Source: Dehalococcoidia bacterium (GTDB lineage: Bacteria; Chloroflexota; Dehalococcoidia; Lucifugimonadales; UBA3495). From it: DNA of 64,000 nt. Each line of letters starts with the position of its first letter. Within the stretch, counting starts at the first letter, position 1. Location of the stretch: assembly GCA_034428715.1 (NCBI GenBank), contig DAOUHE010000022.1:15290-79289 (forward strand). The letters run 5' to 3'. A program made the position numbers and the translations under genes. Below the pieces are notes generated by a model that saw nothing but the letters and a program-made list of their open reading frames with translations, did not search any database and was not told the DNA's origin. Below, piece after piece: positions 27,022 through 63,687 of the stretch.

Positions 27022-28335
27022 GTGGCACCTTCCGCTTATTTGTTCAATTGGGGTGTTTTGTTGAAAGCTGAAATCTTCTCCATCGGCACCGAACTGCTCA
27101 TGGGAGAACTGACCGACACCAACGCCGCATGGATCGCCGGGCGTCTGCCTCCCCTGGGCATCGAGCTACAATGGGTTTCCATCATCGGCGATAACCTGAA
27201 TATGCTGAGCGAGGCATTTGCCCGGGGAATGGAACGGTCGGACATCATCTTCACCACGGGCGGGTTGGGACCCACCCAGGACGACCTGACTCGTGAGGCG
27301 GTGGCCAAGGCCTTTGGCGAGACTCCCACCGTTCAGGAAGAGGTGGTCCGGGATCTGGAGGAATACTTCAGGGGCCGGGGCACGGATATGCCCTCCCATA
27401 ACATCAAGCAGGCCCACCTGATACCCTCGGCCCGATTCATCCCCAACCCCAACGGCACCGCTCCTGGTTGGTGGACCGAACGCGACGGGAAGATCGTGGT
27501 AAACATGCCGGGACCTCCCGGTGAGACCCATCCCATGTGGGAGGATCAGATCGCCCCGCGTCTCCGAGAATTGATCAGCGGCGAGGTCACCATCACCCGA
27601 AACGTCAAAACCATGGGCATGTCGGAAGGGGCCATCGACGAGATCGTGGGGGAGTTCTTCGGCCACGATAACCCCTATCTGGGCATCTATTCCAAAGCGG
27701 ATGGCATTCACCTGAGGGTGATTGCCCGGGCCAAGGATGAGGCCACGGCCCGGATGATGATCGAGCCGGTGGAAACGGCGATCCACCAGCGGCTGGGGCC
27801 ATACGTCTGGGGTTACGACGACGAGACGCCGGAGGTTGCCGTGGGCCTAGCCCTGATAGAAAGGGGAATGACATTGGCCACCATGGAGTCCTGCACTGGG
27901 GGGTATCTGGGCAACAGCATAACTGAGGTCCCCGACAGCGCATTTTATTTCAAAGGCGGGCTGGTGGCTTACAGCAGAGATTCAATGATCGCGGCCGGAG
28001 TCCCAGCACAAGTGATAGACAGCCACAGTGAGGTCAGTCAGGAGACGGCAATGGCCATGGCCCAAGCGGTCCGCCGTGAGTTGAAGGCCGATTACGGCAT
28101 CGGTATCGCCGGATCAATTTCTCCCACGACACCGACCGCGTCCGCTTCACAGGTAAGGCCTTCTGAGGAGCCAGCATCGGTGAGAAGGCCTATGGGCACC
28201 GCCTACGTGGCCATCGTCGGACCGGAAGGCGTCAAGGAAATGGAACTGCGGGTGCCTCCCCGACGCATCACCATCAAGCGCCGCATATCCAACAACGCGC
28301 TGATAGAGCTGAAAAAGCTGATAGCGGAGGGGTGA
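27022..28335 (+). CDS. cinA: CinA family protein (MoCF-binding domain plus nicotinamide-nucleotide amidase domain)
   Basis: KAEIFSIGTELLMGELTDTN N-terminus and a C-terminal CinA/PncC-like domain (MESCTGGYLG). The real start is probably the TTG near 27058-27061. Confidence 0.8.
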   Translation: MAPSAYLFNWGVLLKAEIFSIGTELLMGELTDTNAAWIAGRLPPLGIELQWVSIIGDNLNMLSEAFARGMERSDIIFTTGGLGPTQDDLTREAVAKAFGETPTVQEEVVRDLEEYFRGRGTDMPSHNIKQAHLIPSARFIPNPNGTAPGWWTERDGKIVVNMPGPPGETHPMWEDQIAPRLRELISGEVTITRNVKTMGMSEGAIDEIVGEFFGHDNPYLGIYSKADGIHLRVIARAKDEATARMMIEPVETAIHQRLGPYVWGYDDETPEVAVGLALIERGMTLATMESCTGGYLGNSITEVPDSAFYFKGGLVAYSRDSMIAAGVPAQVIDSHSEVSQETAMAMAQAVRRELKADYGIGIAGSISPTTPTASASQVRPSEEPASVRRPMGTAYVAIVGPEGVKEMELRVPPRRITIKRRISNNALIELKKLIAEG

Positions 28336-28343
28336 TGCCCCCA

Positions 28344-28369
28344 CGTGATTGGCCTCAGGCCCAATCACG
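28344..28369. terminator. hairpin between convergent genes (possible bidirectional terminator)
   Basis: CGTGATTGG-n8-CCAATCACG, a 9-bp stem, between the cinA stop and the DUF3352-like gene stop. No clear U-tract. Confidence 0.3.
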
Positions 28370-28406
28370 ACTTCTAACTATTGAATCTGATCGCTCTAGA
28401 AAGAAA

Positions 28407-30182
28407 TCACTCGGCGGTGACGACAAGGGAAACCCTGCGGACACCATCGTCGATCATGCTGGTGATGAACGCGGACCTTAGAGGTTCCACGAAGGGCTCC
28501 GCTTCCGCTTTGTATTGGCTGAATTCTTTGGCATCCATTGCCGCAACGGCTGCCTGTTCGAGTTCAGAGATATTTAGATAAAATAGCATCTCCGGTAGGC
28601 CGGAAAACCGGCTCGCGATGCGAGAATACTCTGGGTCATCGGCCAAAGAAGGCCGTTCGTTCGCCTCAACTAAGGCGACTTCCTTAAAAACACCAGTGTC
28701 TGTGGCGATTATCAATTGGCCGTCCAGAATCAGATAGCCGGGCCGATACACATCGTTACCAAGAATCTGGGACGCCTCATATACGACTCCGATCCCAGCG
28801 CCATGGACCGTTGACGCTGCCGTGATCCCCATTTGATCCTCCAATCGGCCAGATATCGTTGTCAAGACATTTTCGACGCTGTCCCGTTTCCCTTTATCAA
28901 ATTTGACCAACACCGCGGCCCTCACCGCAGCGGTGGGCGGCTGTTCTGAAGCCCCCTCGAAATCCGACTGCAACAGAACGAACGAGAACTCTCCGGACAT
29001 CCAATCCAACAGATCCCTCTCAAAATCAAACCCGGCGATCTCTTCGAAACGGTCCAATAAAATGTCAAAGACATCGGAGAGGCTGTCTTCTTCGTTGATA
29101 TTTGGATCGACCATGAAAGTCAAAACGGATTGAACGTCGGGCTCTTGATCGGCTACCGATTGAACGGCGAGCCGTTCTCTGAGCAGGTCCAAGTCTGTTG
29201 AAATCTTAAACGCGCCATACGCGATGGAGTCTGCGGGGACCAGATGCGCGGATGACAAGCTGGTCGTTGCCGGCGGCGGCATTCGCTCAACGGTCTTGAC
29301 TGGTGAAATGACATCCACTTGAACACCCAGTTCCAAAAGCGACCCGGTCAAGGCGAACCAGTCCAACCCCAACTCATCGACTTGACTGCGTAGCGCCTCC
29401 GGGATTTGGCTGCCAAACTGGCGTTTGCTATCGGTCCATATCGCTTTCACATCTACATAAGAGGTCAAGAAACGCTCTTTGGGCAGGCTTTCACGAACCG
29501 TTTGGAACTTGGGGTTGGAATACAACGACTCTCCATCGCCGCCGCCTTGGATACGGTCGATGGTCTCTTCCAACAGGTCTGAATCCGACGCGAATTTCAA
29601 ATAATCGCCGGCTGCCGCGAAATAGGCGAACGCGGAGTCGTCTCTGAATACGGTAGCTCCCTGATAGGTTTCACTCTCGTAATCGTTACCTTCATCCTCC
29701 AAAAAGCTGATCCAGTCTTCTAGAAATTCCCGTGACCGGGCCGGGTCTGTGATTTCTAACAGCGCGATTACGATCGGTATGCCGCCCATCTCACCGGCTA
29801 CCACAGACCCAACCACATCTATGACACCAATGCCGATCTCGGGGCCCAGCCAAGGTTCCACGTCCCTCTTAAAGTCAAAACCCGTCTCAGACTCGATGTC
29901 GTCCATCCAATTGTCTAACTTTGGCTGAAATCCCGGGTGTTGGGAGAACCTCTCCCAGAGTCCCTGGGCTTTCCCTAGTTGACCTGTTCCGGGATGAAGA
30001 TTCAGAGAAAGGTAGATTTGGGCATCCGGTGGCAGATACTTGGCGGTTTGCTCCGGTGCGATGGTCTTTCCCCGTAGGACATACAGGGTTGCGGTGCTTG
30101 CGGCTGCCACGGTGAACACCACCAACAAAATGATAAGGACTGGGATCAATCCCAGTCCTTTTTCATCGGCGCGCAAACCCAT
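28407..30182 (-). CDS. membrane-anchored DUF3352-like protein
   Basis: About 590 aa. I prefer the ATG at 30182, preceded by GGAGGG. Single N-terminal TM helix. Family call is from recall of DUF3352 architecture only. GC is visibly lower than in the neighbours. Confidence 0.5.
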   Translation of the reverse strand: MGLRADEKGLGLIPVLIILLVVFTVAAASTATLYVLRGKTIAPEQTAKYLPPDAQIYLSLNLHPGTGQLGKAQGLWERFSQHPGFQPKLDNWMDDIESETGFDFKRDVEPWLGPEIGIGVIDVVGSVVAGEMGGIPIVIALLEITDPARSREFLEDWISFLEDEGNDYESETYQGATVFRDDSAFAYFAAAGDYLKFASDSDLLEETIDRIQGGGDGESLYSNPKFQTVRESLPKERFLTSYVDVKAIWTDSKRQFGSQIPEALRSQVDELGLDWFALTGSLLELGVQVDVISPVKTVERMPPPATTSLSSAHLVPADSIAYGAFKISTDLDLLRERLAVQSVADQEPDVQSVLTFMVDPNINEEDSLSDVFDILLDRFEEIAGFDFERDLLDWMSGEFSFVLLQSDFEGASEQPPTAAVRAAVLVKFDKGKRDSVENVLTTISGRLEDQMGITAASTVHGAGIGVVYEASQILGNDVYRPGYLILDGQLIIATDTGVFKEVALVEANERPSLADDPEYSRIASRFSGLPEMLFYLNISELEQAAVAAMDAKEFSQYKAEAEPFVEPLRSAFITSMIDDGVRRVSLVVTAE

Positions 30183-30264
30183 AACCCTCCGCATCAACCG
30201 GTGGCGTCCACCGCGGGGCCTGCCTTCGCGGTCCCTGGCTTCGGCGGTTGGTCTATCACTGGCC

Positions 30265-33200
30265 CTACAGGGTCAGTTGGCGGTAAAGCATGGGGAGCCT
30301 TTCCGGCAGCGCCCATATATCCCCCAAAACCTCGTATCCCATGTCGCCGCACATGCTCTTGAGGTAATCGTGCCCGGCTTTATCCACGGTGAGGCAGAAG
30401 GGTGTTATGTCCTTCCGTTTGGCTTCGATTAACGCCATATGGGTGTCGTGGACCGCATATTCCTTTTCCACGCCCTCCCGGCTATAGCCCCGGTCCTGGG
30501 GCCGGCCGTCACTGATCAGGAACATTATCTTGGTCGTAGCGTCCTGATTTTCCAGCTTGCTAGTCGCGTGACGAATGGCGGCGCCCATCCGGGTGGCATG
30601 CAATGGGGTGATCTTGTCGATACGGCGTTTGACCTTGTCGCTAAAGCCTTCATTGATGTCTTTGATGACGTAGAACTCAACGTTTTCCCGCCCGTAACCG
30701 GAAAAGCCGTAGATGCCATACGTATCGCCGATGGCTTCCAGCGCGTTGATCAGCAGGGCCGTGCTTTCCTTTTCCAGGTCGATGATCCGTTTGTAGTTGC
30801 GGCGCACCAGCCCTTCCCGCCGCCGGCGAAGCCAGACCATGTACTCCACCGGATCGTCGGGGGCATCCCGGTCATCAACCACCTGCCGGCCTTCATCGAT
30901 GGCTTCGGCCGTGGACGCGCTCATGTCCAGCAAGAACACCACCGCCACGTCTCGGCGGGTGCGGTTACGCTGCCAGTAGATCTTTTCATCTGGCGGCACT
31001 TTCATTCGCAGGTCGGCCCAGGCCTCTATGGCGGCGTTCAGTTCCACGTCCTCGCCGTCGGTCAGACGGTAGATCTTGCGGAAGTTCTCGGGCATTATCA
31101 ACTCGAACTGCCGGCGGATGTGGTTGGACAAGGACATGTAGTTCTTTAAAGCTTCGGAGTAGAAGTTGGAGTCGCCCTCTTCGAGCATCTTTTCCTTGAC
31201 TATGCACCACCGGGGTTTGTAATCAGCCGCCCGGAAGTCCCACTCGTCATAGGCATATGTCTGGGGCTCTTTGGCCTCCAACTCACCGCCCTGTTCGTTG
31301 TCGTGAAGCAGGGGCCCATATCCATCACCAGGCTGGGCGTTGGGAGGCGGGGTTCCCGCTTCCTTCATGATATTCTGGGCGAACATGGCCATGCTATTCT
31401 GTATGTCGCCCTCTTCGGCATCCAGCTCCAGTTCCGCGCTGTCCTGCAGCAACTGCTCCAACATCTCCTTGGAGATGGGCTCGCCTTCACCGTCTTGGCT
31501 GGAATCCATCTGCAGTTTGGTCAATAGCTGGACCATTTCAGGTTTGAAATCGCCGCGGAAATCAATGGGCTCCGGAGATTCGTAAGACTCGCCATCACCG
31601 GCCTCCCCCGACGCCTCCATACCGGCCTGAAGCTGGTCGATCAGCGACTCATACTCCTCTTCCGAAAATTCGCCGGGCTCTTCCAGGTCTTGGTCCTGGA
31701 ACTCTTCTTCGGGTATGGTCTCATTTTGAACCCGGGAGATGATCTCATAGGCCCTGAGGGTGGCTTCGGCCGTATCTTCGACTGTTGCCTCGGAATTCCG
31801 GAGTTCATGCAGGATTTGGGCCAATACCACCGCGGCCTCTTCATACTCGGTGGGCACCGGTAGCTCGGTGAACTGTTCCAAGCTCATGTGGATCATCAAC
31901 TCCACCAGGGCTTCTTGCAGGCCCAACTCCCGAATATTAGGCCGGGTGGCCAACGACTCACCCTGCACCTTCACGGCCGACCGCCTTATGCCCGGGTATT
32001 CCACCTTGATGCGGTAATCCAGGCGGCAATCCTCCAAAACCGTGAAAAGGTCAAATGCCAAACGCCGGTTCTCGAAGAGTTGAAAGAAGCGGCCTATATC
32101 GGTGTAGGCCCTCACTGTCTCCGCGCCACCTTCGACAACGGGAGCGGGCACATTCTCGGCGACGTCCAATTCTTGGGGAGTTGCCAGCATCTGAGCGGTG
32201 AGAGCGGCCTGCCGTTCTTTGGCTTCCTCTTCCATTCGGTGGCGGCGGTCATCGAACAATTCCGACGGCTTTTCAAAATCATATTCGAAACTGCCGAATT
32301 CCAGGTGGCCTACCTGGTGGGTGGAAACCACCTTGAACCAGGCAAAATTCTCTTGCTTGTCGGAGTAATGGTCCACCACCGGCGGCAGGAAGACCCGGGT
32401 ACCGTCGGTGGACGAGGTGTCTTCGTCTACCCAGCCGATGTTTTTGTTGACCAATTCCTTGGTGTCCATCACCTCGATGGGCGACCCGGAGAGGGCCCGG
32501 CAATACAGGCGGATGATACCCTTCACCCGTTCCAATTCCAGGCTGGAAGACAGCGTTTCCAACATGGCTTCCGAAGTGTTGGACTCGATCTTGAAGAAGG
32601 CTATGCCACTTTCAGTGTTTTCTTTCAGCAAGCCCGAGCCATGCTGGAACCAGGCGTCGAGTTGGCTGATGGTTATTCGGTTCAGCACATCGGACAAGCT
32701 CTTGAGGAATGCCGGCACGGCTTCCGGAGAGGTGGCCAACAATGTCTCACACAGGTCCAGGATATATCCTTGGGAGCCGCCCGGCACCTTGCTAAGGGCC
32801 TGGGTGCCGTCGGACAGGAACCGGGACGTGTCCCGCAGCCCGACCTTGGCCAAACGTTCACCCAATTTCAGGAAACGCCCGGTCTGGCCATCGTCTATCT
32901 GCTGCAGGGCCTTGGGAACCACTTCCAGGCAGCTTTTGACCTCACGCCAGCTGCCTTCGATCAGGGCCCTGGACATGGAAAGGAAAGGCTCCCTTTCGCG
33001 GCCCATGGCAGGCAAAACATCGCGGCCCAATACTAAACATTCCGCCGCCACGTCATAGGACTTGTAAGACAACGCCTCCACCAGAGAAGCGAATACCTCC
33101 ACGTCCCAGAAGGGAAGTCCCCGTACCAGGTCGGGGCTGACTTCAAAGAACTTGGAGGCCAGGGTGCTGGACTTCCAGGTTCCCTTATACAAACTGCGGC

Positions 33201-33570
33201 CGAGGCCTGCCCAACGGGGAATGTATTGGGGCCTCAGGTTGGGGACTATGTCGGCACTGGCTTTAAAAAAGGCCACCGCAAGGGAAGGTGAGTCTTGCGC
33301 CAGGTAGGTTCCGCACCGGGCCCACTGCATGAACGACGGGAAGGACAGAAACCGGGCGACCTCGGGACCAACGCGGTAATACTCGACGGCCGATTCCCAT
33401 GACCGCACTGTCTGGTTGGCGATTGCCAGGCCTTCTTTGGCCCACAGCACCAGTTCTTCGGCGCTGAAAGTCGGCTCAACCAGAACCAGGGCCTCGTTGT
33501 AGGCCTCCAAAACCGCCTGGGGCAGCTTTGCTAATTCCTGTGCTATTTCGGATCGGGGGTCTGTACTCAA
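30265..33570 (-). CDS. CbbO/NorD-like protein with C-terminal von Willebrand factor A domain (1101 aa)
   Basis: TTG start after AAGGAGA. NorD/CbbO-like core (LYCRALSG.., STHQVGHLEFGSF, YDEWDFRAADYKPRWC). VWA domain with MIDAS DxSxS (LLDMSAST). Long acidic linker at about residues 618-770. Confidence 0.7.
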   Translation of the reverse strand: MSTDPRSEIAQELAKLPQAVLEAYNEALVLVEPTFSAEELVLWAKEGLAIANQTVRSWESAVEYYRVGPEVARFLSFPSFMQWARCGTYLAQDSPSLAVAFFKASADIVPNLRPQYIPRWAGLGRSLYKGTWKSSTLASKFFEVSPDLVRGLPFWDVEVFASLVEALSYKSYDVAAECLVLGRDVLPAMGREREPFLSMSRALIEGSWREVKSCLEVVPKALQQIDDGQTGRFLKLGERLAKVGLRDTSRFLSDGTQALSKVPGGSQGYILDLCETLLATSPEAVPAFLKSLSDVLNRITISQLDAWFQHGSGLLKENTESGIAFFKIESNTSEAMLETLSSSLELERVKGIIRLYCRALSGSPIEVMDTKELVNKNIGWVDEDTSSTDGTRVFLPPVVDHYSDKQENFAWFKVVSTHQVGHLEFGSFEYDFEKPSELFDDRRHRMEEEAKERQAALTAQMLATPQELDVAENVPAPVVEGGAETVRAYTDIGRFFQLFENRRLAFDLFTVLEDCRLDYRIKVEYPGIRRSAVKVQGESLATRPNIRELGLQEALVELMIHMSLEQFTELPVPTEYEEAAVVLAQILHELRNSEATVEDTAEATLRAYEIISRVQNETIPEEEFQDQDLEEPGEFSEEEYESLIDQLQAGMEASGEAGDGESYESPEPIDFRGDFKPEMVQLLTKLQMDSSQDGEGEPISKEMLEQLLQDSAELELDAEEGDIQNSMAMFAQNIMKEAGTPPPNAQPGDGYGPLLHDNEQGGELEAKEPQTYAYDEWDFRAADYKPRWCIVKEKMLEEGDSNFYSEALKNYMSLSNHIRRQFELIMPENFRKIYRLTDGEDVELNAAIEAWADLRMKVPPDEKIYWQRNRTRRDVAVVFLLDMSASTAEAIDEGRQVVDDRDAPDDPVEYMVWLRRRREGLVRRNYKRIIDLEKESTALLINALEAIGDTYGIYGFSGYGRENVEFYVIKDINEGFSDKVKRRIDKITPLHATRMGAAIRHATSKLENQDATTKIMFLISDGRPQDRGYSREGVEKEYAVHDTHMALIEAKRKDITPFCLTVDKAGHDYLKSMCGDMGYEVLGDIWALPERLPMLYRQLTL

Positions 33571-33571
33571 G

Positions 33572-34183
33572 TTAGTCTCCTTGCACCGCTGTCCCTTTAT
33601 CTAAAACGTCAGGCAACACACCGGGCAACAATTCAAGAAATTGCTGGAGTATCCGCGCTGTCGCCCCGTATATCAGGTGCCCGCCGTATGCGTAGGAATA
33701 GCTTTCTTCTGTTTGACCCTCTTGCCAATGGGTTTCCACTCTGATACTGGCAGGGTCGTGGAGGATATTCACGGGTGCTTCCAGCACCTCGGCAATCTCC
33801 TTGGCGCTGGGTTTGAATGGGTAGGGGTAGGCAATGGTGCCGACGTACACGTTGACCGCGAATCCGGTTCGGGTGGTGACGTCGTCCAATTGGCCCAGGA
33901 CTTTGACATCGCCCCGAAGGATGCCCATCTCTTCTTCTGTTTCCCGCAGGGCCGTATCCAGCGAGTCTTGGTCTTCGGGGTCACGGGCGCCGCCGGGGAA
34001 GGAGATCTCACCCTTGTGGTGCTCCACGTCCTCCGAGCGTTTGTTCAACAAAATGCAGTATTCGCCGTTACGGGGGTAGAGCAAGAGCATTACCGCTGCG
34101 GGAGTCAAAGAAGCGTCGGCCACCGTTTTTCTTACACGGCCCGCCAACGCTTTCTCGATCACATCCAAGGGGGATGGGGCCAT
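33572..34183 (-). CDS. Nudix hydrolase, CoA pyrophosphatase type (NudL/NUDT7-like)
   Basis: 203 aa. LLNKRSEDVEHHKGEISFPGG matches the CoA-pyrophosphatase signature preceding the Nudix box (..RETEEEMGI). Confidence 0.75.
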   Translation of the reverse strand: MAPSPLDVIEKALAGRVRKTVADASLTPAAVMLLLYPRNGEYCILLNKRSEDVEHHKGEISFPGGARDPEDQDSLDTALRETEEEMGILRGDVKVLGQLDDVTTRTGFAVNVYVGTIAYPYPFKPSAKEIAEVLEAPVNILHDPASIRVETHWQEGQTEESYSYAYGGHLIYGATARILQQFLELLPGVLPDVLDKGTAVQGD

Positions 34184-34191
34184 TGAAACCT

Positions 34192-35091
34192 CTATTCGAA
34201 TATCGAGGAGACCACCTCTTCAATACTGCGCTGCAGCTCTACTTCGTCGGTGAGGGTCCACACGATCGCCACCTGGCAGGCTCGCCGCTCCCCGATGCCC
34301 TCGGTCATCAGCCGGCCTGCGTAAATCAACAGCCGGGTGCTGGCGCCCTCTTGCAGGCCGTGCTCCTGCAGGTTGCGTATCTTTACGCCCAGCTTGGCCA
34401 GCGCTTCCGATTGCTCTTTCGAACAGCCACTCTCGCGGGCCACTATCCGAGCTTCAATGGGCTCAGGAGGATAGTAGAACTCAATGGAGATGAACCGCTG
34501 CCGGGTGCTATGCTTCAGGTCCTTCAACGCGCTCTGGTAGTGGGGGTTGTAGGAGATACAAAGCAGGAAGCGGTCGTCGGCTTCAATGATGGAACCGGTC
34601 TTTTCCACGGGCAGGATTCGTCGGTGGTCGGTCAGGGGGTGAATCAACACCGTGGTGTCTTTCCGCGCTTCCACAACCTCGTCTAAGTAAAGGATCGCGC
34701 CATTCTTCACAGCGCGGGTCATGGGGCCGTCCATCCACCTGGTGCCTTCGGCGTCCAGAAGGTAACGGCCAACCAGGTCACTGGCGGTAAGGTCTTCGTG
34801 GCAGGCGATGGTAACCAGAGGAACGCGAACCTCCCCTTCTTCCAACTCCTCTGCCTTCCCGTCCTTATCCTTGAGCACGCTGAGGGGCCGCCCCAATTTC
34901 CAGGCCATATACTCAACGAACCGGGTCTTGCCGCAACCGGTGGGGCCCTTCAACAAAACGGGGATGTGCTGATGGTATGCGGCGGTGAAAAGCTCCAATT
35001 CATCGGCAACCGGCACATAATAGGGCTCGTCCCGGACCAGAAATTCTTCTATGGCATATTCTTTGAATGATGGCTCGACGGCTTCTACCAT
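34192..35091 (-). CDS. CbbQ/NirQ/NorQ-type MoxR-class AAA+ ATPase
   Basis: 299 aa. Walker A GPTGCGKT, Walker B ILYLDEV, and a CbbQ-like C-terminal region. The start overlaps the coaE stop (TAATG). Confidence 0.85.
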
Positions 35092-35702
35092 TATTTTTGC
35101 TCTACCTTTCCTTTGACTCGAGATTCCCAGAGGGATCTGACCGTTGCTTCCAATGCGGCTACGTCGCCTGAATTTTCAACCACCACATCGGACCGGTCCA
35201 ATCGTTCCTGGATGTCCATTTGAGAGCCCAGGCGCTTGCGAACCTCTGCTTCATCCAGGCCGTTGCGTGACATGAGACGCTGAAACACCGCTTCCAGGGG
35301 CGAAGCCGTGACCCAAACCTCGTCCACCAGGGTTTCCCACCCGGCCTCAAATATCAAAGCCGCCTCGACCACCACCACCCGCACCCCGCGGGACCGCATT
35401 CGATTGATCTTTTCGGCCACCATGCCCGCCATTCGCGGGTGCATGATCCCGTTCAACTTGGCCATCTGCCCGGAGTCGGCGAAAACAATGGCACCGAGCT
35501 TTGGGCGGTCTATCTCACCATCTGGTTTAAGGATGTCCCGTCCAAAGGCATCCACAACATCGTTCCAACTCTCGGTATGGGGTGTGTAAGCCTCGTGGCC
35601 CACTTGGTCGGCATTGATTACTTCAGCCCCAAGTTCTTGAAGAACTCGGGTGACTTCAGATTTGCCGGTGCCTATGCTTCCGGTGAGGCCTATGACCTGC
35701 AT
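35091..35702 (-). CDS. coaE: dephospho-CoA kinase
   Basis: 203 aa. [13 protein letters not shown]-loop at the N-terminus and the typical CoaE length. Confidence 0.85.
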
Positions 35703-35790
35703 ATCCTCCTAATCAAGCGCCGGTTGGAACCCGCGAATCGGTTCCTGTGGCCGATCGGACCACGGAATGTGCTGTTCCGACGCCTGGGCC

Positions 35791-35819
35791 ATTCTACCAA
35801 CGGTGCCCACCTTGGTCAA
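35791..35819 (-). promoter_or_regulatory. sigma-70 promoter TTGACC-N17-TAGAAT (with TGg extended -10)
   Basis: Minus strand reads TTGACCaaggtgggcaccgttggTAGAAT, about 90 nt upstream of the coaE ATG. Confidence 0.55.
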
Positions 35820-35943
35820 CAACCGCCATACCCTCAGCAGATTTCGGCGCTTGAGTTCAATATTGGTAAATCGGTCAAGCCCTCTGCGGTCCAGCGGCCT
35901 GCCCCCTAAAAAATATGCGGCCGATCCCACATTTCCATGACCG

Positions 35944-36591
35944 TCAACCGTCGAATTGTATTTTGCCCCAGCGGCTCGTATAGGTGTCCTGAAGTCCCTT
36001 GAACAACTGGCGGTACTCATCGGTATCAATGGGGCAGGTGGTCATGATAACCGCGTCTTCCCGGTTGTCAGAGTAATAACCCTTACGAGTGCCCACCGTC
36101 TTGAAAGCGTATTTTTCGTATAGCCGTTGAGCAATGAAATTGGAGACCCGCGCCTCCAAGGTCATGACTTGTGAACCGTATTTCACCGCTTCTCGCATGG
36201 ACCCGATCAGCAGCAATTCGCCGATGCCCCGGCCCCTCAGCCGTTCCCTGACGGCGATCTCCGTGATGTGGGCCTCTTGTCCCTGGTACCACACGCTCAC
36301 GTAACCGGCTACGAATTCCTCAGCCGCCGGGGGTTTTGGCGGACGGCCGATCGCCCCATTTACACTTCTGGCCAAACGTTCCCACAGAGGACGGCCGGTG
36401 GATTCTTGGGTTTCGTTTCTAACGGCCTCGGCGGTTTCATCGTCGGGGCAGGCCACCAGATAACAAGCGTACTTGTTATTCAGCTCACGCTTAAAGGGCG
36501 TGCTGACCCACAGGGGAGAAAACGCTTCCCTTTCTATCTCAACTACCTGGTTGATGTCCTCGGATTTTAGCCGCCGCAGGAATACTTCCAA
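35944..36591 (-). CDS. rimI: GNAT N-acetyltransferase, RimI-like
   Basis: 215 aa. RimI-like N-terminus (RRLKSEDINQVVEIEREAF) and acetyl-CoA motif RLRGRGIGELLL. Contains an internal insertion relative to typical RimI. Confidence 0.7.
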   Translation of the reverse strand: MEVFLRRLKSEDINQVVEIEREAFSPLWVSTPFKRELNNKYACYLVACPDDETAEAVRNETQESTGRPLWERLARSVNGAIGRPPKPPAAEEFVAGYVSVWYQGQEAHITEIAVRERLRGRGIGELLLIGSMREAVKYGSQVMTLEARVSNFIAQRLYEKYAFKTVGTRKGYYSDNREDAVIMTTCPIDTDEYRQLFKGLQDTYTSRWGKIQFDG

Positions 36592-36808
36592 GAAAAACGT
36601 CCGTAATCTGGCATCGATCCAAAATTTTATGACCCAGATTATATAACGTGGTTAACCCAACCATTTTAACATGGTCAAGAATAGATGAACATAACTCGAC
36701 ATTCATCACGTTACGCCATTTCTATCCATTCAACTATACTGTCAGGACCAGCGTTTCGGCAGAAGTGCCGGACAGTATCTGCTGTACCCACTGTGACGGG
36801 AGGCGGGG

Positions 36809-39298
36809 TTGAGGGTTCGATCTACCATCGGATATTGCCGGACCCCTATTAGGCGTTGGGCTCTTTGGTCCCTGGTATTGGCCTCAGTGACACCATGGGC
36901 TTTGGCGGGCTGCGGGCCAGAGACGGCCGTCAGCGCTCCAGAGACCGCCTTCCTCCCTGCGGCTGCCGCATCTGCCGCATCTACCGCCGACGCCGGTCCG
37001 CCGACCTCATCCACCCCGTTTGCCGGCATCCCGCCCTTACCTGCGCCGGGCTCCAGACCCCAAGCCACTTTTGCGCCGGAGACGGCTACACCCAAACCCA
37101 CGGAACCGCCCTTGCCAGCCCTTATTGAAAAACCGGGGAAACCGCCGCCGGTGTTCACCGTTCCAAGCATCGGCTTGGAGCTCTCCTCCCCTTCCGATAG
37201 GCCGTTGGAATGGTCGGAGTCGATGATCATCTCAGGGACAGCCTCTCCCGGAGCCACCGTCAGCGTCAACGGCGTCCCGGTTCTACCGGCGGCGGACGGC
37301 CGCTTCTCGGCGGCGTTGGCCCTGGGCTCTACGGTGGACCCGGTGTCGCCAGTGTTGGTTGAAGTAGCCGCCAGCAATGGGGCGGGAGGCCGCGCTTGGA
37401 CCGTTACCGCGGCGTTGCCCACTCGGGATGGCGTCACGACGTTGATCGGCACGGTGACAAATATATCTGAAGACCATCCCCGGGCCGTGGCCGGGGAGAC
37501 CGATATCACATTGATGGCCGTAGATGGTCTTGTGGAACTGACTGCTACACCGGCGACGGTGGTGCACATTCCAGCCAGATTCAATCTCGGCCAAGAAAAC
37601 CAGGGCGCCGATGACCTTCCGTTTCAATCGATTCAAGACGTGAACGTGGGAGACCGCGCCGCTGTTTCAACCGTCGGCGGGCGGGTTTTGCATCTTCTGG
37701 TGCTGCCGGAAAGTCCGGTGAATTCGCTGCATTTTTCAGGGGTGGTGGTGCCTTCACCGGCGTCATCCCGTGGCGCTGCCTTCCTAACCCTGCGGGACAG
37801 GCAAGGCAACCAGATATCGGCAACGTTCACGCCGGATATTGAAGAGCCGCTATTAGGGGCATGGGTCACCGCGATCTTGTCCCGGCCAAGCTCCAGCGAG
37901 GAGCTACAGATTACCGGACTGGACCACGCCACCGCCAGTCTGAACCGGGTTTCAGCCGCGCTGGAATTGTCGCTGACCGCTGGCGACACAGAAACTTTTG
38001 ATGGGTTGCTACGCCATCTGGAAGCAACCGCCAAACGCCGCCTGACCTTATTGGACGATGCATCACGATGGCCGCTGCCATTGTTGGCGGCCAGGGCGCG
38101 GGAAGAGTTCGCCGTTTTGCAGGAAGCCTATGACCGAACGTTGGCGCGATACGGCCGCGGCCCCGTCTTTCTAGAAGTAGACGGCATAATCACCTCATTG
38201 GGCGCGCAGACCCCCGAAGGCCGGAAATTGACCGTTGAACCCGAATCAGGTCCGTTGGAAATAAATCTGCCGTCACGGACCGGCGTTTGGCTCAACCCTG
38301 CTGAAACGCCCCGGCAGGCGTTGGAGGGATGGCTCATCGGGTTTGCCGGGATTGAAGACTATACGGCCGAATACCGTGGGTCCGGGATCAGCCCCAGTAA
38401 ACTTGATCTGGGACACCGGGTGACCGCCACCTACGATCCCGCAACCCACGTGGTGGCGAGGATCGCGGCCCCGGCGACCCGGCAACTGGAGGACGGTCTG
38501 GCCCGATCGCTATTGCCTCTGGCGGGGATGGGGGAGATGGCTGGCACGGTGACCCATCTAAGCCTTCAGGGTCAGGCTCGCAGTGTATATATTCAGGACC
38601 AGACCACGGGCGGAACGGTGATTTTTTCGGCTACGACCGAAAGCCAGACCCTGGTAGACGGACTCCCGGTGCCATTGGGGCCAGACCTGGCCGGGCGGAA
38701 AGTTGCCATCCTCTTTCAACCGGGATCCGGGGAGATCATCGAGATGTCGACCCAAGAACCGGCTCCTGGAGAGGAGACGGTGTCGGGAGTTGTCACCAGT
38801 TTCACTTCAAAGGTCTTCCACGGAAACGTCACCATCTTGACCTCCCAAGGGGAGTCGAAAACCTTCACCCAAGATCAGGACACGGTCATCCGGCGGGACG
38901 GACGTAGGATCTCCGTCAGCGACGTGAGGCCAGGGGATCTGGTCCGGCCCAACACGCGGCATCGGGCGGAAGGTCCGGCGGAAGGTCCCGCGGGGCTTGG
39001 CGGCCCAGTTTTAACCTTTCTGAGCTTGAAAAGTCCCGAGCCGGTTCATTTGACCGGAACGGTAATGGGAATTGCCAGCCCGCCGTCTAGTCCGCCAGGT
39101 GATGACAACAGGGTCACCATCATCACAGACGGTTTGGACTTGATCACCCTGTCGATCACCGAAAGCAGCAGTCTCAATCGGCTGGGAACCGAAATCGGGC
39201 GAAACTCATTGCGCATCGGAGACAAGATCAGCCGGGCAACATACAACCCAATTACCAACGAGCTGGTCCAACTCGAATTGGCCGCCCCCGCACCATGA
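36809..39298 (+). CDS. large lipoprotein of unknown function (829 aa)
   Basis: TTG start and a signal peptide with lipobox (WALAGC). Pro/Ala-rich linker followed by beta-rich modules. C-terminal segments resemble DUF5666-type barrels (VSGVVTSF...GDLV; LTGTVMGI...GDKI). Confidence 0.6.
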   Translation: MRVRSTIGYCRTPIRRWALWSLVLASVTPWALAGCGPETAVSAPETAFLPAAAASAASTADAGPPTSSTPFAGIPPLPAPGSRPQATFAPETATPKPTEPPLPALIEKPGKPPPVFTVPSIGLELSSPSDRPLEWSESMIISGTASPGATVSVNGVPVLPAADGRFSAALALGSTVDPVSPVLVEVAASNGAGGRAWTVTAALPTRDGVTTLIGTVTNISEDHPRAVAGETDITLMAVDGLVELTATPATVVHIPARFNLGQENQGADDLPFQSIQDVNVGDRAAVSTVGGRVLHLLVLPESPVNSLHFSGVVVPSPASSRGAAFLTLRDRQGNQISATFTPDIEEPLLGAWVTAILSRPSSSEELQITGLDHATASLNRVSAALELSLTAGDTETFDGLLRHLEATAKRRLTLLDDASRWPLPLLAARAREEFAVLQEAYDRTLARYGRGPVFLEVDGIITSLGAQTPEGRKLTVEPESGPLEINLPSRTGVWLNPAETPRQALEGWLIGFAGIEDYTAEYRGSGISPSKLDLGHRVTATYDPATHVVARIAAPATRQLEDGLARSLLPLAGMGEMAGTVTHLSLQGQARSVYIQDQTTGGTVIFSATTESQTLVDGLPVPLGPDLAGRKVAILFQPGSGEIIEMSTQEPAPGEETVSGVVTSFTSKVFHGNVTILTSQGESKTFTQDQDTVIRRDGRRISVSDVRPGDLVRPNTRHRAEGPAEGPAGLGGPVLTFLSLKSPEPVHLTGTVMGIASPPSSPPGDDNRVTIITDGLDLITLSITESSSLNRLGTEIGRNSLRIGDKISRATYNPITNELVQLELAAPAP

Positions 39299-44092: not shown

Positions 44093-45466
44093 CTATTGAG
44101 CCAGCGCCGATGACACCGCCGGCAAAAGGTCGTTCTCTTCATTTGGCATCACCGTCCGCGGGTCCAGCAAAACCCGGTCTTCTTCAACCCGGGCCACCAC
44201 CGGCGGGTTCCACCGCCTTAGCCTTTCCATAACTCCGGCCGGGCCTCCCGTCGCGCCCGTGCAATCCAAGGCCAAAACCCAGGAAGCCAGGGTCTCTCCA
44301 GGCAGACTCCCTCCGCCAATGGCCGACCGGCTGGGTTCGACCTGGGCCGGGTTTTCCAGCCTGGACCGCCATCTGGTGGCGCGTTCCTTTATCTCCTCGG
44401 GCGGGGTTGAGATCATACGCCAAATGGGTATCTCAACCTCCGCTTCGCCTCGCAGGTAGTGCACCAATGTGGCGGTAAGAGCCGCCATGCTGAGCTTATC
44501 GATCCTGACCGCCCGGGCCAAGGGGTGCCGCGCCAAGCGGCTCACCAACTCCTCTTTGCCAGCCACGATCCCCGCCTGGGGCCCGCCCAGCAATTTATCT
44601 CCCGAGAAAAATACCAGACCAACCCCGGCGGCGATGCTTTCCTGGGGTGTAGGCTCGTGAGCCAGGCCGTAACGCTCGGTGGGCAACAAGCAGCCGCTGC
44701 CCTCGTCGTGCATCACCGCCACGCCGGTCCTTTCGCCCAGTTCCACCAGATCCCCCGGTTCCACCACCGCGGTGAACCCTTCGACGCGGAAGTTGCTGGC
44801 ATGGACCTTCAAGAAAGCGGCCGTGTTCTCCGTCACCGCTTGTTCGTAGTCCCGGAGGTAGGTCCGGTTGGTGGTCCCTATGTCCACCAGTTCGCCGCCG
44901 CTCTGACGGCATACATCAGGTATCCGGAACCCGCCACCAATCTCCACCGCCTCCGCCCGTGATACGACCACTTCTTTGCCGGAAGCCAATGCCGAAAGGC
45001 CCAGCAGCACGGCCGACGCATTGTTGTTTACGGCGAAGGCCGCCTCAGCGCCCGTTAACCGCCGGACCAACGTTTGCAGACGGGCCTGGCGTGAACCGCG
45101 GCGCCCGTCCGCAAGGTCCAGCTCCAGGTTGGTATACCCAGCCGCCACGTCCAGCATGGCCTGGGTGGCCGCCGGGCTCAAAGGCGCCCGTCCCAGGTTG
45201 GTATGCAAAATGACGCCGGTGGCGTTGATCACCCTTCGAGGTTCCTGCCGGGTCATGCCGGCCAACTGGCTGGAAACGGCCTCTGCCACCATCTCGGCGG
45301 CCGGCGCGTCCTCTCCCCGGCGAATCCCGTCCCTGGCCAGGTCCAGCTCTTCCCGGACCAGGTCCACCAGCAATTCCCTCTGGTAGTTGCCGGCCACATC
45401 GGCCAGGGCTTCGCTGGCCAGAACACTGTTCACATTGGGCAAGTTACGAAATTGCTGAGATTGCAT
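44093..45466 (-). CDS. selA: L-seryl-tRNA(Sec) selenium transferase
   Basis: 457 aa. SelA motifs NATGVILHTNLGRAPL and PLP-lysine segment FSGDKLLGGPQAG. Confidence 0.85.
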   Translation of the reverse strand: MQSQQFRNLPNVNSVLASEALADVAGNYQRELLVDLVREELDLARDGIRRGEDAPAAEMVAEAVSSQLAGMTRQEPRRVINATGVILHTNLGRAPLSPAATQAMLDVAAGYTNLELDLADGRRGSRQARLQTLVRRLTGAEAAFAVNNNASAVLLGLSALASGKEVVVSRAEAVEIGGGFRIPDVCRQSGGELVDIGTTNRTYLRDYEQAVTENTAAFLKVHASNFRVEGFTAVVEPGDLVELGERTGVAVMHDEGSGCLLPTERYGLAHEPTPQESIAAGVGLVFFSGDKLLGGPQAGIVAGKEELVSRLARHPLARAVRIDKLSMAALTATLVHYLRGEAEVEIPIWRMISTPPEEIKERATRWRSRLENPAQVEPSRSAIGGGSLPGETLASWVLALDCTGATGGPAGVMERLRRWNPPVVARVEEDRVLLDPRTVMPNEENDLLPAVSSALAQ

Positions 45467-62110: not shown

Positions 62111-63097
62111 ATGCGTATTTCATCACCAATAGGCGTGAAAACATGGGTGTGCGTAGGAATGCTCGCCTTAGCCATAGGTTGCGAAACATCTGCTACCCCG
62201 ACACCGATCATTGTAGAAAAGGAAGTAGTCAGAGAGGTGCCGGTGACAAGGGTAGTCGATGTCGAAAAGGTCGTCGAGGTACCTGTCACCGTGGTCGTTG
62301 AGAAAGAGGTGGCTGTTACTAGAGAGGTGCCTATTATTAGAGAGGTACCTGTCACCGCGTTCGTCGAGAGAGAAGTCGTTGTGACGAGAGTAGTGGAGGT
62401 TACTGCATCTCCAACCTTTACGCTGATTCCATCTAAAGCGACAGCAACCCCAGCAATGCCGCAAGGGCTTTTTTCTAAGACAATAGGCATCTATCGCTCA
62501 AACTCGTCGGCATTGGCGTATGGCTTTCGAGAAGGTATCGATGTAGACGCGATCGAGCCCGAAAGTTTCAGCAGTCTTTCTGCCATGTACCGTGGCGTAA
62601 TTTATATGCCTCCAACCGTAAGCTACGGTTATGGGACCGAGGCAATCGGTCAATTGACCCAACTAAGCCGATTTATTGAGGAGGGAGGAAGGGCGGTTAT
62701 ATTCATTGGAGATTGCAGGGATGAATTTGCGGACCGATTGCAGAACGAGTTTGGGTTTCGTTGTGCTTCCGCCGGCACAAAAATAGGGTGGGAGGCCTTG
62801 AAAGGCGAATGGCTGACTCCACTTTGGCAAGGGCTTTCTGTAGGCTCTGACACCGCGACAATCCAGCTCGTACCTGGGCCTTCGTCACAGTACGAATGCA
62901 GAACGTTGACTATGGGCGATTTGGAATTTTGTGGTAGTCTCACCGGACGCTTCGGCGACGGCGAGGTTATATTCGTGCTCGCTGGCCGCTATAAAGGACA
63001 GTACGCTCCATCTTACATGTTTGAAACTGATCATATAGACGAATATGACAATTTGCAAGCCTACATTAACACTCTCCGCTGGCTGGTCGAAGGATAA
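62111..63097 (+). CDS. lipoprotein of unknown function with N-terminal V/E-rich repeats
   Basis: ATG at 62111 after GGAGGTG. Lipobox LAIGC. About 90 residues of degenerate (E)KEVV-REVPVT repeats are followed by a globular domain with no family recognised. GC is visibly lower. Confidence 0.6.
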   Translation: MRISSPIGVKTWVCVGMLALAIGCETSATPTPIIVEKEVVREVPVTRVVDVEKVVEVPVTVVVEKEVAVTREVPIIREVPVTAFVEREVVVTRVVEVTASPTFTLIPSKATATPAMPQGLFSKTIGIYRSNSSALAYGFREGIDVDAIEPESFSSLSAMYRGVIYMPPTVSYGYGTEAIGQLTQLSRFIEEGGRAVIFIGDCRDEFADRLQNEFGFRCASAGTKIGWEALKGEWLTPLWQGLSVGSDTATIQLVPGPSSQYECRTLTMGDLEFCGSLTGRFGDGEVIFVLAGRYKGQYAPSYMFETDHIDEYDNLQAYINTLRWLVEG

Positions 63098-63687
63098 TTA
63101 AGGCATTCGTCCGACATACCAGCAGCCATAATGGATTATTGGCGGGATTCCTGCGACTTCGCTGTTGACCTCCAAGGATTTACAAGACTAAACCCCGCCT
63201 TCAACCGGTCCCGTTCTTCCAGAGAATCGCAGACCTTGGCTACCCGGATGGCGTGGCGTATATCTTTCGTTCCCGGACCGACCCGTTCGGCGACAGGCGC
63301 GGCAGGTCCCGGTCCTTGCCCAGCCAGCGGGTGATGAACCTCCTGAGAATAGCGATGCCCCGACTCCGAAGGCTTTAGGCAAGCTATTCGGCGCTGGTCT
63401 ACCCCTGGCTGAGCATCGTGTCCACCGAGCCTAGAAATCTGGCCGGAAACCCCGATTCTCCCCAAACCGTCGTTTTCATAACGTCGATTATCGATGAAAT
63501 AGCGGATGGTTCAACGTAATACATGTACTACTGTGCCGCATAAGACTGGAATACGTCTGATTGGCGTAGCGCAAAACCCGGCCAATGGCTTTCCGGCCAG
63601 ACTTCTAGGCCTTCCAGGGCCAGGCCATAGCCATTGTGCTGGGATACAATTCCAGCATCAGACCTAACATGACGGAAGGAGGCGACA

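Follow-up and report, generated by a model that had tools for sequence, protein, structure and literature searches.

The window considered here, a 64,000-nucleotide stretch of a Dehalococcoidia contig (DAOUHE010000022.1), carries on its minus strand an operon in which the dephospho-CoA kinase gene coaE is followed by genes for a CbbQ/NorQ-type MoxR AAA+ ATPase, a Nudix hydrolase, and a very large VWA protein. We found that the VWA protein represents a distinct "giant" adaptor subfamily of approximately 1000–1130 aa with its own N-terminal module and motifs, and that the linkage of the AAA+/VWA pair to CoA genes is not chance adjacency. The pair most likely works, judging from its sequence, as a NorQD-like finger-in-pore machine, and we tentatively favor the view that it is a remodelling machine with a task linked to the pool of 3'-phospho-ADP/CoA nucleotides. 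Although MoxR AAA+/VWA pairs occur widely, clients are known for few of them: Rubisco, the nitric oxide reductase dependent on cytochrome c, carbon monoxide dehydrogenase (CODH), the chelatases, and the case of RavA/ViaA. A subfamily that combines a distinctive adaptor architecture with a reproducible CoA-enzyme link therefore offers a testable lead to a new client class, and at least one cultured host, Tepidiforma, is available for experiments.

The gene neighborhood was surveyed in 164 related loci, comprising 80 species-representative genome loci (L008–L087, all from Chloroflexota and including the cultured Tepidiforma flava), 80 metagenome loci found with a distant-clade profile (L092–L171), and four loci obtained by exact look-up (L088–L091). 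Loci were scored by tblastn and open reading frame (ORF) analysis, by Pfam and NCBIfam assignment of the neighbors, and by clustering of the VWA proteins. The order coaE>AAA+>VWA was present in 70 of the 72 Dehalococcoidia loci that had enough flanking sequence, at VWA identities to the window protein of about 40–85% and with a median extrapolated gap of 7 nt between coaE and the AAA+ gene. The flanks themselves turn over: the upstream GNAT gene was present in only about 17 loci, and a convergent cinA in roughly half. In Candidatus Tectomicrobia the gene order is PHP/CehA-McbA-type metallohydrolase>AAA+>VWA>coaE (6 complete and 5 partial loci), with gaps of 8–92 nt between the VWA gene and a coaE whose product scores 166.3 bits against TIGR00152. 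Selection evidently maintains the coaE linkage in Dehalococcoidia, and a rearranged form of it recurs in a second phylum.

Other CoA enzymes stand beside the pair in further lineages. Marine Pseudomonadales loci read (alpha/beta-hydrolase>)enoyl-CoA hydratase (ECH)>AAA+>VWA; the stop codon of one gene often overlaps the start codon of the next, and other gaps are short. As one more example, we point to locus L090, which belongs to a separate VWA cluster (cluster 3) and has NifB-like and ferredoxin neighbors; here an ECH gene overlaps the AAA+ gene, and a DUF169-CoaE fusion is encoded 3 kb away. Across the 108 same-strand neighbors of the 84 non-genome loci, the commonest families were ECH_1 (10), CoaE (10), and alpha/beta hydrolases (7). 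Finally, the plasmid NZ_CP064358.1 of Miltoncostaea oceani, a cultured member of the Thermoleophilia, encodes a CbbQ-like protein, a 362-aa hypothetical protein, and a 548-aa VWA protein (L172, 7368–11078), and these genes adjoin others for a thiolase, an OB-fold (DUF35) protein, an AMP-binding/acyl-CoA ligase, a ketoacyl synthase, and an acetoacetate decarboxylase. The 362-aa and 548-aa genes may together represent a split giant adaptor.

The junction between the AAA+ and VWA genes tolerates insertions. In the window it holds the Nudix gene (33572–34183, minus strand, 203 aa), and a Nudix gene of the same CoA-diphosphatase type fills this slot in about 50 Dehalococcoidia loci, all from one subclade. 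A YfcE-family phosphodiesterase (Metallophos_2) takes the position in 11 loci, including those of Tepidiformaceae, and the slot is empty in about 12 Dehalococcoidia loci that form a third subclade. The Nudix gene is accordingly an accessory gene, and its reading as a core part of the module is not supported. We found no precedent in the literature searched for a Nudix gene placed between AAA+ and VWA genes. Individual slot inserts were also located in L085 (3749–4267), L070 (5937–6644), L023 (8860–9327), L056 (8897–9904), and L044 (6829–9164); among the insert types, the cyclophilin is Pfam-confirmed in L085 and a sequence resemblance in L070, the PhnB-like protein corresponds to PF06983, and the SDR-like, methyltransferase-like, and PIN-like inserts were assigned by eye only.

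Both CoA-related enzymes of the operon were examined against curated models. The product of coaE (35091–35702, minus strand, 203 aa), the first gene of the operon, matches PF01121 (3e-48) and scores 164.9 bits against TIGR00152, above the equivalog cut-off of 65.55. The Nudix protein matches PF00293, and its top NCBIfam model is NF007980, CoA pyrophosphatase, at 104.3 bits and thus under the equivalog cut-off of 134; its relative in L157 reaches 131.1 bits. Its PDB matches include the CoA pyrophosphatase of D. radiodurans (1nqy, 1e-19) and NUDT7. Its sequence (LLNKRSEDVEHHKGEISFPGG...ALRETEEEMGI) contains the Nudix box and, upstream of this, the NuCoA-type motif (LLxxR[SA]...GxxxFPGG), and the pattern LLxxR[ST]xxVxxHxGExxFPGG...ALRExxEExG is retained in 48/52 slot Nudix genes. 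The CoA-pyrophosphatase signature reported earlier stands as a motif; the score does not reach the equivalog level. The protein, a putative CoA diphosphatase, resembles the known enzymes of this type (E. coli NudL, DR1184/1nqy, NUDT7) in its Nudix box, its FPGG-ending NuCoA-type motif, and its best PDB and NCBIfam matches, and differs from them in its sub-cut-off score and in the position of its gene between those for an AAA+ and a VWA protein.

The preliminary description had left room for chance adjacency of coaE and the Nudix gene with the pair; the survey speaks against this, with CoA enzymes recurring beside the pair in two phyla other than that of the window. We base the linkage to CoA genes on the conserved coaE order in Dehalococcoidia, the coaE genes of Tectomicrobia, the ECH genes of Pseudomonadales, the Nudix and YfcE-type genes of the slot, and the neighbors on the Thermoleophilia plasmid. 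From this conserved linkage, by guilt by association, we infer both the CoA connection and the kind of client, and we hold a task tied to the CoA nucleotide pool with a little less than even confidence.

Several observations weigh against that assignment. Approximately 36 loci of other lineages, including metagenome-assembled genomes labelled Spirochaetota and Deltaproteobacteria, are bare AAA+>VWA pairs in unrelated housekeeping contexts with no CoA-related neighbor; a link to CoA therefore does not hold throughout the family. The slot also takes unrelated inserts (a cyclophilin, a PhnB-like protein, a short-chain dehydrogenase/reductase (SDR), and a methyltransferase accompanied by a PIN gene), and the Nudix score is sub-threshold, as given above. 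Among the VWA proteins, cluster 1 (Dehalococcoidia) and cluster 6 (Tectomicrobia) are mutual nearest relatives, so that the coaE linkage may have arisen only once, in an ancient event, and been rearranged later, instead of arising twice independently. Given the large number of ECH genes in these genomes, some adjacency is expected by chance; coaE, a housekeeping gene, joins unrelated operons in many bacteria. Lastly, our search for a client, Rubisco and nitric oxide reductase included, extends only to the window and the identified neighbors of the related loci.

These points lend substance to the possibility that the CoA genes are passengers. The pair would then act as a chaperone of the NorQD kind on a housekeeping client encoded at an unlinked site, such as a metalloenzyme into which a cofactor has to be inserted, and coaE and the phosphohydrolases would merely share its transcription unit. 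We regard this as a serious possibility, if a doubtful one: the bare pair is the commonest architecture outside Dehalococcoidia, the slot accepts genes of unrelated function, the Nudix is limited to one subclade, and the known relatives NorQD and CoxDEF insert metals (PMC13036017, PMC3471820). Against it, the coaE linkage outlasts that of all other neighbors and turns up again, in another phylum, on the opposite flank of the pair. Moreover, the two most frequent neighbor families in the distant loci are both CoA enzymes, and three unrelated phosphohydrolase families accompany the coaE-linked pairs.

The ATPase gene (34192–35091, minus strand) encodes 299 aa that match AAA_5 (PF07728, 6e-27) and CbbQ_C (PF08406, 3e-28). 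In the PDB its strongest matches are CsoCbbQ of H. neapolitanus (5c3c, 5e-99) and CbbQ2 of A. ferrooxidans (6l1q, 4e-92), and two NorQ structures follow at about 1e-85 (9qhd, 2e-85). Walker A (GPTGCGKT, residue 49) and Walker B (ILYLDE, residue 133) are intact, as is the H2-insert motif of the GRxLL/IxxxxT type at residue 108, the motif that contacts the VWA finger (PMC13036017). By all of these sequence features the protein classes as a member of the CbbQ/GvpN/NorQ (CGN) subfamily of MoxR ATPases. It additionally carries 20 aa (residues 71–90, window 34822–34881) inserted after the Walker A helix, which the solved CbbQ and NorQ structures do not have. A variable insert of 10–22 aa occurs at the same position in the AAA+ partners of every giant-VWA cluster (AAA+ genes from L012–L158), and may serve as a sequence marker for this subfamily of partners.

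The VWA gene (30265–33570, minus strand, 1101 codons) encodes a NorD-like protein of which the Pfam VWA model matches residues 929–1077 only. [quoted passage not shown] Residues 773–1099 match NorD (9qhd_G) at 5e-34 as a single sequence and at 1e-67 with a profile from A1, an alignment of 32 diverse VWA homologues, and residues 773–903 align to NorD 355–484, finger included. Identity to NorD is about 30% and is confined to the C-terminal 330 residues. An AlphaFold2 (AF2) model of the protein, with a mean predicted local distance difference test (pLDDT) of 82.9, gave a Foldseek match to the VWA-plus-finger portion of NorD 9qh6_G (E 7e-15, template modelling (TM) score 0.77) and also to the MIDAS domain of MDN1. 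The MIDAS is complete (D882, S884, S886, T993, D1021; DxSxS-T-D); it is invariant in A1 and in the equivalent columns of A2, a second alignment of 18 diverse homologues. The C-terminus, LPxLYRQLTL, is conserved, and LYRQLTL aligns with the IYRQL C-terminus of NorD. In the 2026 NorQD cryo-EM structures the finger and the C-terminus bind the AAA+ pore and the post-sensor-1 loops (PMC13036017).

Preceding the finger is an acidic linker (residues 620–770; 31261..31713, minus strand), recognized by its composition and mostly low pLDDT. In 50-aa windows over residues 551–750, D+E make up 22–32% and K+R 2–6%, and past residue ~640 the pLDDT is mostly low (35–78), with short confident helices in the AF2 model. 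Its counterpart in NorD is the linker described in PMC13036017. The conserved mixed alpha/beta middle domain (residues 346–619; 31714..32535, minus strand), which has invariant alignment columns, is a region resembling the NorD N-terminal domain (NTD), and it aligns in full to the 636-aa relative P0403. It contains nearly invariant ENF, HQxGHxEFG, and EDxR[IL]D motifs in A1 and A2. Its profile alignments to NorD residues 87–119 and 157–198 are weak and non-significant, and it has a weak profile match to CobT (E 1.3e-3). The near-invariant block comprises P396, ENF408, H418-Q-x-G-H-x-E424-F-G, F509, E513-D-x-R516, and Y525-x-G527; a 636-aa relative retains just part of it, and in NorD the block cannot be aligned. 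The pattern of conservation suggests a ligand or metal site.

The N-terminal residues 1–345 (32536..33570, minus strand) are predicted by AF2 to be all-helical (pLDDT ~90–97) and form about eight hairpin repeats of roughly 37 aa with the pattern W/FxxxGxxLxxxSxxxAxxFF...P..L (self-similarity z=10 versus shuffles). For P0403, the relative of 636 aa, the alignment is limited to profile columns 330–1084 and begins at query residue 323; lacking the first ~320 residues, this protein indicates that the repeat module is an addition to a core of NorD/CbbO length. When the full AF2 model was searched against the PDB with Foldseek, the VWA/finger part alone was identified: for the N-terminal repeats all matches were to designed helical repeats, and nothing useful was obtained for the middle domain. 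Variable N-terminal domains of such adaptors have been proposed to confer client specificity (BMC Biology NorQD paper).

The family is broad. An exhaustive HMMER search at E<1e-3 returned 4190 cluster representatives, of which 1376 (50%-identity clusters) reach E<1e-30, the latter count including shorter NorD/CbbO-type relatives. Many of the matches are full-length proteins of ~1000–1130 aa, down to 26–30% identity; such full-length members occur in Chloroflexota, Tectomicrobia, Gammaproteobacteria, and metagenome-assembled genomes labelled Deltaproteobacteria and Spirochaetota. By source name, members come from Dehalococcoidia, Candidatus Tectomicrobia, Pseudomonadales/Candidatus Azotimanducaceae, Deltaproteobacteria, Spirochaetota, Polyangiales, and a Thermoleophilia plasmid. 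No paper on this adaptor family or on its CoA-gene linkage was found in the literature searched, and searches linking dephospho-CoA kinase or CoA to MoxR, CbbQ, or NorQ, or linking SAR202 or Tepidiforma to norQ/norD, yielded nothing relevant. We also noted giant VWA genes with no AAA+ gene in the locus despite 4.6–9.9 kb of upstream flank (L058, L064, L113, L135, L147, L161, L163, and L165), and the pair is therefore unlinked in some lineages. In L147, L161, and L165, as well as in L138, an FtsJ/RlmE methyltransferase gene lies directly downstream.

Of the characterized systems, NorQ/NorD, which inserts FeB into the nitric oxide reductase that depends on cytochrome c (PDB 9qh4–9qhg; PMC13036017, PMC9976466), offers the closest comparison for the adaptor. 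The two systems share a CbbQ_C-bearing MoxR AAA+ protein with the H2-insert motif, and a partner with finger, VWA domain, MIDAS, and C-terminal docking motif. They also share the NTD-linker-VWA layout, and the finger-in-pore twisting mechanism therefore probably applies here; the conservation of MIDAS, finger, C-terminus, and H2 insert is what leads us to a NorQD-like mode of action. The differences are equally plain. The adaptor has 1101 aa versus ~640 aa in NorD, with about eight extra helical repeats and its own middle-domain motifs, the AAA+ protein has its 10–22-aa insert, and the pair shares its operon with coaE and a Nudix gene, with no norCB nearby, in place of a norCBQD cluster. The dimensions usual for NorD and CbbO, a ~240-aa NTD and a disordered linker in ~600–800 aa overall, are likewise not those of this protein. 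Because size, N-terminal region, and nor/cbb association all depart from those of the known adaptors, we do not call it NorD or CbbO.

This matters for annotation, as the Joint Genome Institute (JGI) often names members of the family "nitric oxide reductase NorD" or "activation protein" (P0035, P0054, P0062, P0177, P0286, and others). Taken at face value, these names would make the pair a genuine NorQ/NorD or CbbQ/CbbO that serves a nitric oxide reductase or Rubisco encoded elsewhere in the genome, and the AAA+ protein is indeed about as similar to CbbQ and NorQ as these are to each other. We nevertheless consider such an assignment very unlikely. Despite the NorD labels, no nor genes occur near any of the 164 loci, and no cbb or cso gene was present in the window or among the identified neighbors; the adaptor shares with NorD only the finger-plus-VWA portion, at the low identity given above, and belongs to a separate family of distinct length whose module, motifs, and insert-bearing AAA+ partners are its own. 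The NorD label on the giant VWA family is likely a systematic mis-annotation. Automatic NorD/NorQ annotation can give false denitrification signals in metagenomes, for example in marine Dehalococcoidia/SAR202.

CbbQ/CbbO provides the best AAA+ match and a conceptual model for an activase function: an AAA+ hexamer with one VWA adaptor frees Rubisco of tightly bound inhibitory ligands (PMC4660213, PMC4633670). It differs from the present system in that no Rubisco (cbbL/cbbM) or carboxysome genes are nearby and in that the adaptors are of different length classes. The source lineage, Dehalococcoidia, is mainly heterotrophic. Rubisco activase and CbbY, a xylulose-1,5-bisphosphate phosphatase, form another instructive case in which a remodelling ATPase works with a phosphohydrolase that destroys the released inhibitor. 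The combination of a remodeller with a small phosphohydrolase is similar here by analogy only: the protein families are different, and the action of a Nudix or YfcE-type enzyme on a released ligand is itself part of the analogy.

With these systems as a guide, we propose the following working model for a CoA-linked remodelling machine. The CbbQ/NorQ-type ATPase would assemble as a hexamer, and the 1101-aa partner would insert its VWA finger into the pore and dock its C-terminus on the ring. A client other than Rubisco, nitric oxide reductase, or CODH would be gripped by the MIDAS face, the middle domain, and the ~8-repeat module, and ATP-driven rotation would stretch the acidic linker and pry the client open. 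In its most economical version, which could be described as activase plus clean-up, the client would be an enzyme that uses or makes CoA, and opening it would free, or allow the exchange of, a CoA-type ligand that is tightly bound, damaged, or inhibitory; a phosphohydrolase encoded alongside (Nudix here, YfcE-type or PHP-type elsewhere) would then destroy this ligand, and CoaE would complete the resynthesis of CoA. We consider it unlikely, though worth stating, that the pair in this specific sense serves CoA-dependent enzymes, or the biosynthesis of CoA, as an activase, a CoA counterpart of Rubisco activase plus CbbY. If true, this would be a previously unrecognized cofactor-repair or enzyme-reactivation system in Dehalococcoidia and other environmental lineages.

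The same gene arrangement could be read the other way around, with the co-encoded phosphohydrolase (Nudix, YfcE-type, PHP, or metallo-beta-lactamase-fold) or CoaE as the direct client, which the machine loads with metal or activates. Metal-dependent hydrolases of four folds do occupy the same slot or flank across lineages, the Nudix gene is tightly coupled in translation between the AAA+ and VWA genes, and NorQD-type systems insert metals. At least 10 Dehalococcoidia loci and about 36 others, however, have no such hydrolase beside the pair, and for a client of 200 aa, an adaptor that has 1101 aa and a large repeat platform seems out of proportion. Nudix enzymes bind Mg or Mn loosely, and no requirement for chaperones is known for them. 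On balance we judge this explanation improbable. Metal-insertion pairs of other kinds (CobS/CobT, ChlI/ChlD, CoxD/CoxE) share the AAA+ plus VWA-MIDAS architecture, and CobT the weak match noted above, but they use other AAA+ subfamilies, and no CobN, ChlH, or CODH genes are nearby. The analogy to cobalt- and Mg-chelatases was therefore set aside, the AAA+ protein being of the CbbQ type and no CobN/ChlH being encoded in the vicinity.

The preliminary description saw no classical client for the pair in the 64-kb window, and our searches bear this out: at the Pfam level the window contains no Rubisco, carboxysome, nitric oxide reductase (COX1/NorB-type or cytochrome c), CODH, or gas-vesicle genes. 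Nor were the classical client families present among the identified neighbors of the 164 related loci, so that the earlier view of an uncharacterized CbbQ/NorQ-type AAA+/VWA module without a classical client holds in the relatives as well. What the window does encode at this level includes short-chain dehydrogenases, LutABC, glycerate kinase, M20 peptidases, a class-V aminotransferase, arginase, an ABC transporter with auxiliary proteins, CinA, GNAT, GroES/EL, SelA, an acyl-CoA dehydrogenase, a sigma factor, riboflavin genes, a PrfB-like release factor, ThrRS, an MFS transporter, and an IS3 transposase.

One candidate client had been proposed next to the operon, namely the single-pass DUF3352 membrane protein (PF11832, 1e-40) encoded at 28407–30197 on the minus strand. 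The gene is on the same strand as the VWA gene and downstream of it, at a distance of 67 nt if translation starts at the first TTG and of 88 nt if it starts at the ATG chosen in public gene calls (589 aa), and our scan found no convincing terminator between the two; the DUF3352 gene is possibly co-transcribed with the operon in this genome. A DUF3352 homologue was found in 0/164 related loci, even where the VWA protein is 82% identical, and in close relatives a convergent cinA or other genes lie directly 3' of the VWA gene. We therefore rejected the protein as client or partner. Synteny effectively refutes this idea, to which we give a negligible chance, and the gene lies outside the conserved system.

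We give equally little credence to the possibility that the locus is an anti-phage or conflict system. MoxR-VWA ternary conflict systems do exist (PMC7159879), but PADLOC gave no significant match: there was only a partial match of 18.9 bits to IetA over 39 residues, and the VWA, Nudix, and CoaE proteins had no matches. The housekeeping context, the vertically conserved linkage, and the lack of effector domains also argue against such a role.

Fine-scale features of the operon agree with the preliminary description, in which the genes were said to be packed on the minus strand behind one promoter and to have Shine-Dalgarno sites inside the upstream genes; Pfam and NCBIfam likewise agree with its domain identities for the five ORFs. 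Read directly from the sequence, the coaE/AAA+ junction is TAATG, a 1-nt overlap, and the AAA+/Nudix junction is an 8-nt gap in which a GAGG overlaps the AAA+ stop codon. Between the Nudix and VWA genes there is a gap of 1 nt, and an AAGGAG lies within the Nudix gene, 5 nt 5' of the TTG start of the VWA gene, the same start as in public gene calls.

Upstream of coaE, a consensus scan placed a promoter at 35791..35819 (minus strand), with a -35 of TTGACC, a 17-nt spacer, and a TG-extended -10 of TAGAAT. This was the sole sigma-70-like minus-strand match from the GNAT gene to the end of the DUF3352 gene; promoter-like matches in the region numbered 3 against a shuffle expectation of 3.8, which is not above chance. 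The element is kept as GTTGACC-N17-TTGnTAGAATG in all 14 of 14 related loci, in which the surrounding intergenic DNA is not alignable, and this constitutes a strong phylogenetic footprint. Because the genes overlap or nearly abut, with internal Shine-Dalgarno sites, and because there is one footprinted promoter, the promoter, coaE, AAA+, Nudix, and VWA genes form a single promoter-led operon. A terminator-like hairpin found by scanning, ATGTGGGATCGGCCGCAT followed by ATTTTTT (35915..35932, minus strand), lies 3' of the upstream GNAT gene and marks the 5' boundary of the operon. An Rfam scan of 28000–36700 at E<=1 gave no riboswitch or leader RNA match.

Several other features of the window are recorded here. 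An ORF of 829 aa (36809–39298, plus strand), oriented divergently to the GNAT gene that precedes the coaE operon, has no Pfam match, is called as 715 or 829 aa by different assemblies, and has relatives that are only ~31% identical. An IS3-family transposase orfA/orfB pair (HTH_Tnp_1 plus rve, ~62247–63472, minus strand) lies in the window's only marked GC dip (0.524 versus ~0.58). Near groES/groEL is a gene for SelA, L-seryl-tRNA(Sec) selenium transferase (44093–45466, minus strand), and its presence therefore points to the use of selenocysteine in this Dehalococcoidia genome.

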